A DNA stretch of 56,712 nt from NCBI GenBank assembly GCA_964431915.1, contig CAYSLI010000002.1:89503-146214 (forward strand), given 5' to 3'. The position numbers were made by a program, and so were the translations under genes. Source of the stretch: an uncultured Candidatus Saccharibacteria bacterium. Its GTDB lineage: Bacteria > Patescibacteriota > Minisyncoccia > Minisyncoccales > CAZKCU01. Positions 50,553 to 51,272 of this stretch are shown piece after piece. Within the stretch, counting starts at the first letter, position 1. Every line of letters starts with the position of its first letter. The notes under the pieces are model-generated. The model was not told the origin of the DNA. It did not search any database and saw nothing but the letters and a program-made list of their open reading frames with translations.

Positions 50553-50733
50553 AAAATTAGAAGAGACAAATTTATGGCTAAAAAGAAAGGAAACTAAAAA
50601 GAAGAAAAAGTGCGGTTGTGAATGAGGAGATTGAAAAATTAGGAAGTCTCTTCCTGATTTTTTACTTAAAGGGAAAGAACCTTGAAAATTAAACCGAGCA
50701 TATAATCTTGTTATGTGCTTGGGTAAATATTAA

Positions 50734-50758
50734 TTAGTTTCTTAGAGTTGTCCCGAAA
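50734..50758 (+). other. 5' arm of the 16S processing stem (pairs with 54146-54170)
   Basis: TTAGTTTCTTAGAGTTGTCCCGAAA is the exact reverse complement of 54146-54170 (25 bp). Confidence 0.9.
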
Positions 50759-51272
50759 AAATTTTATTTTGAGAGTTTGATCCTGGCTCAGGATGAACGC
50801 TGGCGGCGTGGATAAGGCATGCAAGTCGTACGGTCGTGCACATAACTTGTTATGTGTACGATAGTGGCGAACGGGTTAGTAACACGTAGATACAAACCCT
50901 ATTCACGAGTATAACTAATCGAAAGATTAGCTAATCCTCGATGGTCCGAGCATATAATTTTATTATGTGCTCGGTAAAGGTTTCTCAAGAAGCCGGAATG
51001 GGATTGGTCTGCGGCCTATCAGCTTGTTGGTGGGGTAATAGCCCACCAAGGCAATGACGGGTAGGGGAGATGAGAGTCTGTTCCCCAACAAGGGCACTGC
51101 GACACGGGCCCTACTCCTACGGGAGGCAGCAGTCGAGAATATTGGGCAATGGGCGAAAGCCTGACCCTGCGACGCCGCGTGCTCGAAGAAGCCCTTCGGG
51201 GTGTAAAGAGCTTTTCTAAGGGAAGAACCTTCGGGTGACGGTACCTTAGGAATAAGGGGGTGCTAACTCTGT

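Follow-up and report, generated by a model that had tools for sequence, protein, structure and literature searches.

A hairpin-repeat family recurs in ribosomal RNA helices, other stable RNAs, and gene boundaries across the Parcubacteria

The window analyzed here, a stretch of 56,712 nucleotides from a CPR organism whose closest named relatives are Parcubacteria (Nealsonbacteria-like), contains exactly four copies of one hairpin family, HP1: in the spacer ahead of dnaX, in the rRNA leader, and in helices h6 and h10 of the 16S rRNA. The HP1 consensus is ACCGAGCACATAA-loop-TTATGTGCTCGGT, with a loop that is usually 3–8 nt long. On balance, we favor the explanation that HP1 is a duplicative hairpin-repeat family, REP- or RHE-like, that extends across the Parcubacteria and whose copies are kept as ordinary RNA helices.

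Pattern, fuzzy, and covariance scans agree on the four sites, which bears out the four look-alike hairpins reported in the first-pass annotation. The gapped exact HP1 pattern has no match in 100 shuffles of the window, and a fuzzy scan that tolerated as many as 3 mismatches in each arm returned only the four sites, compared with ∼0.2 sites per shuffled window. Run with its filters off, the covariance model likewise found only these four in the window, at 36–46 bits (E 1e-9 to 3e-13), the next-best match scoring 11.5 bits, and no lone HP1 half-sites were present in the window beyond chance. All four hairpins fold as predicted, with z-scores of −4 to −7.6. The copy in the dnaX spacer (arms at 16732-16744 and 16750-16762, plus strand) is a perfect 13-bp palindrome with the loop ATAAA that scores 46 bits on both strands; no Rfam family was matched at 16732. 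The HrcA CIRCE element, the LexA/Cheo box, the DnaA box, parS, and uptake sequences, compared as known palindromic operators and signals, do not match HP1.

The other three copies lie on the plus strand in the rRNA operon. A sigma-70-like promoter match upstream of the rRNA leader (TTGACA-16-TAAAAT, 50525..50552, plus strand; 11/12, a consensus match only) is the only promoter-like site found by the promoter scan. A promoter inside HP1 itself, with TATAAT in the leader and V2 variants, was considered and rejected, because TTGAAA lies too close upstream, at a spacing of 13 nt by eye. The leader copy (50693-50723) has a 12-bp stem, two of whose pairs are G·U on the RNA strand, and is positioned ∼40 nt upstream of the conserved TTAGTTTCTTAGAGTTGTCCCGA segment, with flanks that are homologous in relatives. 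The 16S rRNA gene (50765..53035, plus strand; Rfam) includes an 852-nt insertion containing a group I intron, and Infernal alignment to the bacterial SSU model assigns its two HP1 sites to h6 and h10, the V1 and V2 labels first given to them being correct. In h10 (50946-50974) the copy is complete, CCGAGCAUAUAA-UUUUA-UUAUGUGCUCGG. At the tip of h6 (50834-50861) an HP1-like apex, ACATAA-CTTG-TTATGT, projects from the clade stem TCGTGC/GTACGA. The likeness of h6 to HP1 is partly that of the clade's own stem (TCGTGC/GCACGA), which relatives have with a different apex, and the HP1-specific part is only about GCACATAA-loop-TTATGTG. All three copies score higher on the transcribed strand than on the opposite strand (leader, 42.2 versus 27.2 bits; h10, 40.0 versus 37.6; h6, 36.3 versus 26.4) because their deviations are G·U pairs. 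The dnaX spacer copy is strand-symmetric in its score.

HP1 is confined neither to V1/V2 nor to one genome; it is Parcubacteria-wide and present also at gene boundaries, in 23S rRNA and RNase P RNA, and in group I introns. When one genome per species was scanned with the pattern CGAGCAYATAA-N3-8-TTATRTGCTYG, at least 127 sites were recovered in at least 115 eight-kb blocks from at least 78 assemblies, nearly all of them Parcubacteria. Among the matches listed are Nealson-, Wolfe-, Harrison-, Azam-, Lipton-, Terry-, Jorgensen-, Wildermuth-, Staskawicz-, Portnoy-, and Brennerbacteria and Paceibacter, together with two non-CPR MAGs and many MAGs whose only label is "Saccharibacteria" or "Patescibacteria." The consensus of 128 copies, ACCGAGCACATAA-N4-TTATGTGCTCGGT, is exactly the dnaX copy of the window, a result to be read with the exact-pattern sampling of the family, which inflates its apparent conservation. 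Carriage by phage was also considered and dropped; the single IMG/VR match is outside the usual hairpin context and is probably due to chance.

HP1 lies outside open frames of at least 120 codons at 135 of 155 sites, the other 20 being mostly near frame ends, and is therefore non-coding. By Rfam annotation of the loci, HP1 forms P3 and two or three further helices of RNase P RNA and is also located within 23S rRNA, group I introns, and the 16S h10 of another genome. It also follows RNase P RNA and a tRNA gene immediately at their 3' ends and lies in one 23S leader and one 23S–5S spacer. A single RNA can hold several copies (at least five in the 23S gene of L046 and up to three in RNase P RNAs), and the covariance model adds diverged copies. 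Among seven aligned RNase P RNAs, HP1 forms P3 in five, a distal helix in four, and another helix in two, and it is present in the 3' trailer of two, the occupancy of these four sites being mosaic; L060 and L114 have very similar RNase P RNAs, in which one helix is HP1 in one of the two and a short GC hairpin in the other. In the two non-CPR MAGs (one Deferribacteraceae, one from a thermophilic reactor), HP1 is positioned at the apex of a different repeat, GTCATTTCGACCG...GGAGCGGAGAAATCTC, and one Deferribacteraceae locus (L089) also contains an HP1-less copy of this host repeat. We count these occurrences as probable horizontal spread. Variants with a long interior have 36–238 nt between the HP1 arms, which therefore behave like terminal inverted repeats. 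Placement at the apex of a host stem was examined as a general property of HP1 and rejected as such, though the UBA1873 repeats, the dnaX spacer, and the helices of rRNA and RNase P do show it; in a crude test, a second host helix outside HP1 was distributed like that around random positions. A conserved long-hairpin RNA context with HP1 at its apex was also observed (L026, L031, L068, and others), with no Rfam match at the gathering score.

Thirty-five copies aligned in the RNA sense have 92.5% of cells paired. Double-sided changes are found at 6 of the 13 pairs (15 cells), a value reached by none of 500 shuffles, and two stem positions are G·U in ∼45% of the copies. By this alignment, pairing in the RNA-embedded copies is maintained by G·U and compensatory changes; the diverged copies (V1; L087, L015, and L012) likewise keep pairing and not sequence. 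The four apical pairs, AUAA/UUAU, are invariant in the 35 copies, a set found by similarity and so biased toward conservation, and the HP1 arms are near-invariant across lineages whose other variable helices are unrecognizably diverged. Arm invariance, taken together with the identity of the h10 arms described below, looks more like selection on sequence or continuing homogenization than like decaying selfish DNA.

Syntenic 16S relatives, reached through EF-Ts, allow the rRNA copies to be compared at orthologous sites. The closest 16S relative found (L196/L197; 96% identity to the window over the 16S 5' domain) carries HP1 in h10, where a C-G pair has become U-A by a compensatory change, and a variant of HP1 in the leader; its h6 is a short ordinary helix without HP1. 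The stem bases of the leader and h10 copies have diverged from each other in L196. L083 (85% identity) has an HP1-type h6 and h10 arms identical to those of the window, whereas the adjacent h9 is much more diverged, and no leader copy was seen in the 150 nt read. The first-pass annotation had proposed aligning V1 and V2 of the nearest relatives as a check on whether these helices are recent replacements. In this comparison the h10 HP1 is old, being common to the 96% and 85% relatives, and the HP1-type apex of V1 is found in the 85% relative and not in the 96% one. Other palindromes occupy the same places elsewhere. In L201 (88%), the leader and the h6, h10, and h17 tips all belong to the family HP2, of which one locus has six copies, mostly ∼97 nt long, and L198/L199 (86%) carry a third palindrome family, HP3, in the leader and h6. 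In L209, an HP2 leader is combined with an HP3-like h6, and the families of L203 are also mismatched; other 16S relatives have plain short helices or long AT-rich expansions. Helices h6, h10, and h17 are usually shortened in CPR and lie close together on the 30S surface (PMC9297842), and CPR rRNA insertions are mostly found at the top or base of stem-loops (PMC11270868). Neither of these papers mentions hairpins or palindromes.

The dnaX spacer (16722..16778, plus strand) separates a gene for a GtrA/DPMS-family membrane protein (16128..16721, plus strand; PF04138, 1e-19) from dnaX, which encodes clamp-loader gamma/tau (16779..17900, plus strand; start MTNLVLYRKYRPQTF). All 57 nt of it form one hairpin (−30.3 kcal/mol, z −7.65), in which the host stem GCGAAGCGAAA ... 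GTGCTCGTTATTACTCGC carries HP1 at its apex and ends 3 nt before the dnaX AUG; HP1 itself begins 10 nt past the GtrA-family stop codon and ends 16 nt ahead of the dnaX start codon. None of 80 metagenomic dnaX relatives (DnaX identity 74–92%), most of them with the same GtrA-like gene upstream, has HP1 in the orthologous spacer, and the HP1 covariance model found no match anywhere in the 348 kb of these 80 loci. The orthologous spacers range from zero to ∼130 nt and are often empty or filled with other palindromes. Three relatives (L134, L169, and L154) share the flanks of the window's spacer, AGCGAAGCGAAA ... GTGCTCAYT...TTCGCATG, but have the core CCCCGCCCTCT...AGAGGGCGGGG, which is HP2. A reading of the GTGCTC after HP1 as a duplicated arm was rejected on this account, the same flank following HP2 in the relatives and pairing within the spacer stem. 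The spacer copy is thus a recent acquisition, the most recent of the four, because it is unique among the 80 relatives and matches the consensus perfectly, while the h10 copy is old. Its donor may have been any HP1 copy in the genome, most of which lies outside the window. The copy caps the hairpin abutting the dnaX start and, if it acts at all, would probably do so as a terminator, insulator, or stabilizer hairpin.

The dnaX copy belongs to a directional class of ∼17 intergenic copies in which HP1 is followed by GTGC(T)C, often by a second stem-loop, and then by (G)GCATG, the ATG of which is the gene start; in the window, the order is HP1-GTGCTC-GTTATTACTC-GCATG. The genes so preceded include glmS, rpsJ, rpsR, rpmA (twice), fusA, mraZ, recR, mreB, trpS, fpg, and pilB-like and NYN-domain genes. 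This directional leader architecture before the first genes of operons hints at a function.

We favor a duplicative family because HP1 is patchy in its distribution and mosaic in its occupancy, because orthologous sites may be filled in one relative and empty in another or taken by a competing family, and because HP1 has spread beyond the CPR. In the mechanism that we propose, copy-and-paste or short-patch conversion would insert HP1 into the tip of an existing hairpin or replace that tip, the recipients being peripheral helices of stable RNAs, spacer hairpins at gene boundaries, and other repeats. Survivors would be only the copies at tolerated places, namely solvent-exposed helix tips and intergenic spacers. 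A copy inside an RNA gene would be transcribed and serve as that helix (in the window, as h6, h10, and one leader hairpin), would presumably be retained in the mature rRNA where it forms part of the 16S, and would drift under RNA-pairing constraint only, by G·U and compensatory changes. Candidate routes of copying, all three offered as speculation, are a hairpin-specific enzyme, short-patch conversion, and template switching at hairpins. The near-invariance of the arms and the directional leader class count against a duplicative element, as do these observations: no mobilizing enzyme, target-site duplication, or donor–recipient junction was found at the loci examined, and copy number is low (four in the 57 kb of the window, three of them in one operon). 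Target-site duplications around HP1, which the first-pass annotation had suggested looking for, were sought at 154 sites; most direct-repeat flank counts are near chance, the largest excesses are only 2–3-fold (e.g., 20 versus 9.6 and 7 versus 2.4), and none is clearly elevated. No transposase was found beside HP1, the genes between or next to the paired copies of L012 and L086 being metabolic or encoding LAGLIDADG endonucleases, and no arm pair encloses an ORF in ∼0.77 Mb of loci. The initial proposal of a REP/MITE-like element is upheld in that one family occupies rRNA and non-rRNA loci, is present or absent at orthologous sites, and recurs in many unrelated contexts; it is not upheld as to a GTAG/CGTC tag, target-site duplications, a high copy number, or, at the loci examined, an associated transposase. 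As to the direction of copying, domestication of a repeat within the rRNA and copying of rRNA helices out into the chromosome are both candidates. For the copy at 16732, copying out would fit at least as well, given the greater age of the h10 copy and the uniqueness of the spacer copy among 80 relatives.

An account that we hold possible, without thinking it probable, is that HP1 is a recognition hairpin for a conserved trans-acting factor of the Parcubacteria, either an RNA-binding protein or a processing nuclease, following the logic by which archaeal rRNA, RNase P, and other RNAs share the K-turn/L7Ae module. RNAs would gain HP1 as binding of the factor aids their folding, protection, or end formation, and the family of each genome (HP1, HP2, or HP3) would match the specificity of its factor. 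Such a factor would account for a stem sequence that is near-invariant where only structure should matter, for an HP1 more conserved than neighboring rRNA helices between 16S genes of 85% identity, and for the use of one hairpin family at several sites per genome with different families in different genomes. The recurrent placement at RNA ends and boundaries, the directional 5'-leader class before the genes for S10, L27, S18, and EF-G and before mraZ and dnaX, and the position of h6, h10, and h17 as neighbors on the 30S surface (PMC9297842) point the same way. However, no candidate protein has been identified, the distribution is patchy among close relatives (the closest relative found has no V1 copy), and the diverged copies keep pairing rather than sequence. 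The loop is free in sequence and length, and a sequence-specific reading of an A-form stem would be unusual; moreover, HP1 is also found in two non-CPR genomes inside another repeat. The invariance of the stem, the concerted family identity, and the leader class fit either a trans-acting factor or continuing homogenization, and the trans-factor and duplicative readings are compatible, REPs being both mobile and functional. It is doubtful that HP1, HP2, and HP3 serve as specificity tags read by a trans-acting factor that varies between lineages, either a hairpin-binding protein or an endonuclease. We are as hesitant about the suggestions that rRNA, RNase P RNA, group I introns, and the 5' or 3' ends of operon transcripts are the targets of this factor, and that a change of factor would make all sites of a genome switch family together. 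Such tags, if real, would make up a system of shared RNPs or RNA punctuation in bacteria.

The copies outside stable RNAs could also be intrinsic terminators, DNA sites for a dimeric regulator, or an uptake signal, their likeness to rRNA being incidental, which we consider very improbable. The dnaX copy passes a lenient terminator scan and T-runs follow several other copies (L012, L060:915, L077, L074, and L088), but the dnaX tail, GCTCGTTATT, is weak and most copies are without a T-run. The DNA-site version is disfavored because the spacing of the arms, from 3–8 nt up to 238 nt, is unfit for a dimeric DNA-binding site and because lone half-sites are not found beyond chance in the window, unlike those of uptake sequences; the copy number is also low, and the identity with RNA-internal copies is far beyond chance. 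Very improbable too, in our judgment, is a role of the rRNA-operon copies in RNA–RNA pairing, in which the leader would pair transiently with the arms of h6 and h10 and so guide the 16S 5' domain as it folds or is processed during transcription, the dnaX copy being an unrelated by-product. Leader–16S interactions have been reported for Escherichia coli and provide an analogue, palindromic copies when identical are also mutually complementary, and the leader and 16S do share a family in the window (HP1), in L196 (HP1; leader and h10), in L201 (HP2; leader, h6, h10, and h17), and in L198 (HP3; leader and h6). Against this stand the mismatched families of L209 and L203, the lack of a leader copy in the 150 nt read of L083, and the divergence of the leader and h10 copies of L196 at the stem base. 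The copies in 23S rRNA, RNase P RNA, introns, and mRNA leaders would also be left unexplained, and copying among sites within ∼600 nt is a simpler account of the co-occurrence. Chance similarity or mis-assembly, finally, can be set aside with near certainty. Only the nativeness of the h6 stem base to the clade speaks for it, and it is refuted by the zero expectation in shuffles and by the recurrence of HP1 in at least 78 genomes assembled independently of one another and, in independent metagenomes, at orthologous positions of the 16S.

Returning to the duplicative family, HP1 is by analogy a bacterial counterpart of the hairpin-repeat elements of organelles. The earlier statement that nothing comparable had been described is wrong for organelles, where mitochondrial RHEs are both intergenic and in rRNA genes (PMC2800124); searches of the literature by sequence string and topic found no description of the HP1 hairpin for bacteria or CPR. 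Mitochondrial RHEs, double-hairpin elements, and GC clusters occur in sponges, placozoans, fungi, and green algae. The RHEs have copies in intergenic regions and, at length-variable sites, in rnl or rns; one of them, a helix of 10 bp closed by a 7-nt loop, is both intergenic and in rnl (PMC2800124). Hairpin families are also found in the variable arm of a placozoan tRNA (PMC7813641). Like HP1, RHEs combine a ∼10-bp stem with a small loop, lie in intergenic regions and inside rRNA, and are present or absent between close relatives; they are presumed to be mobile without a known enzyme and are probably kept in the transcript (PMC2800124; PMC7813641). HP1 falls within the RHE definition in being one family at intergenic and length-variable rRNA sites that is polymorphic among relatives (PMC2800124). 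It differs in its location in bacterial chromosomes, in a sequence common to dozens of deeply diverged Parcubacteria lineages where RHEs are species-specific, in its additional use in RNase P RNA and group I intron helices and at a directional 5'-leader position, and in its low copy number per genome. There is no sequence homology between HP1 and the mitochondrial elements.

Among bacterial repeats, the REP/BIME elements of Enterobacteria and Pseudomonas resemble HP1 as palindromes of 20–40 nt at gene boundaries, sometimes in mosaics with other hairpins and possibly acting as terminators or mRNA stabilizers, and HP1, with 26–34 nt and a 12–13-bp stem, has the size of a REP palindrome. REPs fall into two super-families by a GTAG or CGTC end tag (PMC3733652); HP1 instead has the ends ACCGAG... 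and ...CTCGGT, with neither of these tags in the 128-copy alignment. Further differences from REPs are copy numbers in the tens rather than hundreds and a location that is not extragenic only (two of the window's four copies are inside the 16S). No RAYT gene was seen beside the copies of L012 and L086. Compared with a MITE, the 13-nt arms correspond to terminal inverted repeats, and target-site duplications are wanting. Rickettsia palindromic elements (RPEs) are palindromic repeats of a reduced genome that are inserted at tolerated positions in functional genes, including an RNA gene; RPEs are 100–150 bp long and mostly in-frame in protein-coding genes, whereas HP1 has ∼30 nt and avoids coding sequence. 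The K-turn of Archaea, with its partner L7Ae, is a single small RNA motif found repeatedly within one cell, in its rRNA, RNase P RNA, and further RNAs, but HP1 is a plain Watson–Crick hairpin without a kink or conserved loop. Short CPR rRNA insertions have been likened to RNase III-cleaved IVS in a paper whose main text contains none of the terms "hairpin," "palindrom," "repeat," and "intergenic" and describes no link of rRNA inserts to genomic repeats (PMC11270868). Such insertions resemble HP1 as extra or replaced stem-loops at helix tips, and the ∼97-nt HP2 copies of L201 fit this description; the h6 and h10 copies of the window, in contrast, are of normal helix length in the SSU-model alignment, and therefore no excision is needed.

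With HP1 as a duplicative family, an interchangeable genomic hairpin cassette would make up part of the variable helices found in the rRNA, RNase P RNA, and introns of the CPR; this bears on the expansion and reduction of rRNA in ultra-small bacteria and on the spread of short palindromes without a recognizable transposase. Phylogeny from 16S V1/V2 and chimera detection in the CPR would be affected, since unrelated taxa can have identical V2 tips and close relatives can differ. If the invariance of the stem reflects a binding factor, HP1 would represent a new layer of RNA processing in an uncultured phylum-level group.

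Two further palindrome families, HP2 and HP3, are found in relatives at the same kinds of site as HP1, the ~30-nt hairpin family that in the window lies in the gtrA-like/dnaX spacer, the rRNA leader and helices h6 (V1) and h10 (V2) of the 16S rRNA. HP2 has the arms CCCCGCCCTCTATGCT and AGCTTAGAGGGCGGGG, its copies are mostly ~97 nt long, and six of them sit in one rRNA locus of a relative (L201, 2336-5035, 16S from 2540), positioned in the leader, at the tips of h6, h10 and h17 and at two further sites. In L134, L169 and L154, HP2 likewise occupies the spacer in front of dnaX. 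HP3 combines the arms TCGCTATCGCTC and GAGCGATAGCGA with long, AT-rich, repetitive interiors (L198, 7084-7450; L209, ~6530-6720), and within one genome it occurs in the 16S leader as well as in h6. The gtrA-like/dnaX spacer of relatives also hosts another repeat family, with variants of the forms GAAGCGAAAGA[AT]GAGATTTATCTCATCGCACAAT and GAAGAAGCGCGCTTCTTC that in some cases stand in tandem; the relatives with this family are L117, L118, L132, L143, L149, L161, L164, L167, L170, L184 and L187.

The 16S gene of the window is itself interrupted near E. coli position 510-520 by an 852-nt insertion (51263-52119), within which Rfam recognises a group I intron at 75 bits and an ORF (51490-52119) encodes a LAGLIDADG_2 homing endonuclease. 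No 23S gene follows the 16S in 53036-56395, a region that may represent an integrated element. It contains a LAGLIDADG_1 ORF (53286-53891) overlapping an Rfam match to group-II-intron D1-D4 (53309-53384). Beyond these lie the gene for a YbaK-like editing protein (54254-54730) and a pair of tRNAs (54734-54806 and 54818-54889), the second of which is overlapped by a large serine recombinase on the minus strand (54824-56395).

A second small hairpin family was noted in the window at 924-965 and 25134-25191, with the common core AAATCGCCT...AGGCGATTT (two matches in the window versus zero expected). The 21-nt arms of the first copy form a perfect palindrome, and both copies show an A-run, stem and T-run, a layout resembling a bidirectional terminator. 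Just 5' of mraZ (1171-1602), about three DnaA-box-like 9-mers, TGTGGATAA, were seen by eye near 989, 1098 and 1127, together with one near-match; this stretch (985-1140) may be oriC or a DnaA-regulated region.

A recurrent 5'-leader architecture is shared by HP1 loci of other genomes and of the window, in which the hairpin is followed by GTGC(T)C, a second stem-loop with an A/T-rich 3' half, and (G)GCATG (L003, L007, L009, L022, L034, L036, L048, L057, L096, L101, L106 and others; window 16763-16781). Base pairing is possible between GUGC in this leader and GCAU in the start region, and the architecture may serve as a leaderless-type promoter, as a processing site or in the control of translation. 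Among the matches listed, ~10 genomes place HP1 at the apex of a conserved long-hairpin RNA-like context, ...CTCC(A/T)GCGG...TCTCGG...[HP1]GACC(A/G)AGCT... (L026:5239, L031:4243, L068:4545, L100:7205, L112:892, L017:4169, L030:3873, L042:2780, L052:1959 and L105:3568), for which Rfam gave no match at gathering score.

HP1 is also present in two non-CPR MAGs among the matches listed, Deferribacteraceae UBA1873 (L004, L028, L059, L089 and L107) and GSC-VFA-60_REP12 (L024 and L084). In all five UBA1873 loci, and in L024, a different dispersed repeat (GTCATTTCGACCG...GGAGCGGAGAAATCTC) carries HP1 within it, at its apex. Horizontal transfer, in which a CPR epibiont and its host may have been the partners, could account for these non-CPR copies, as could mis-binning.
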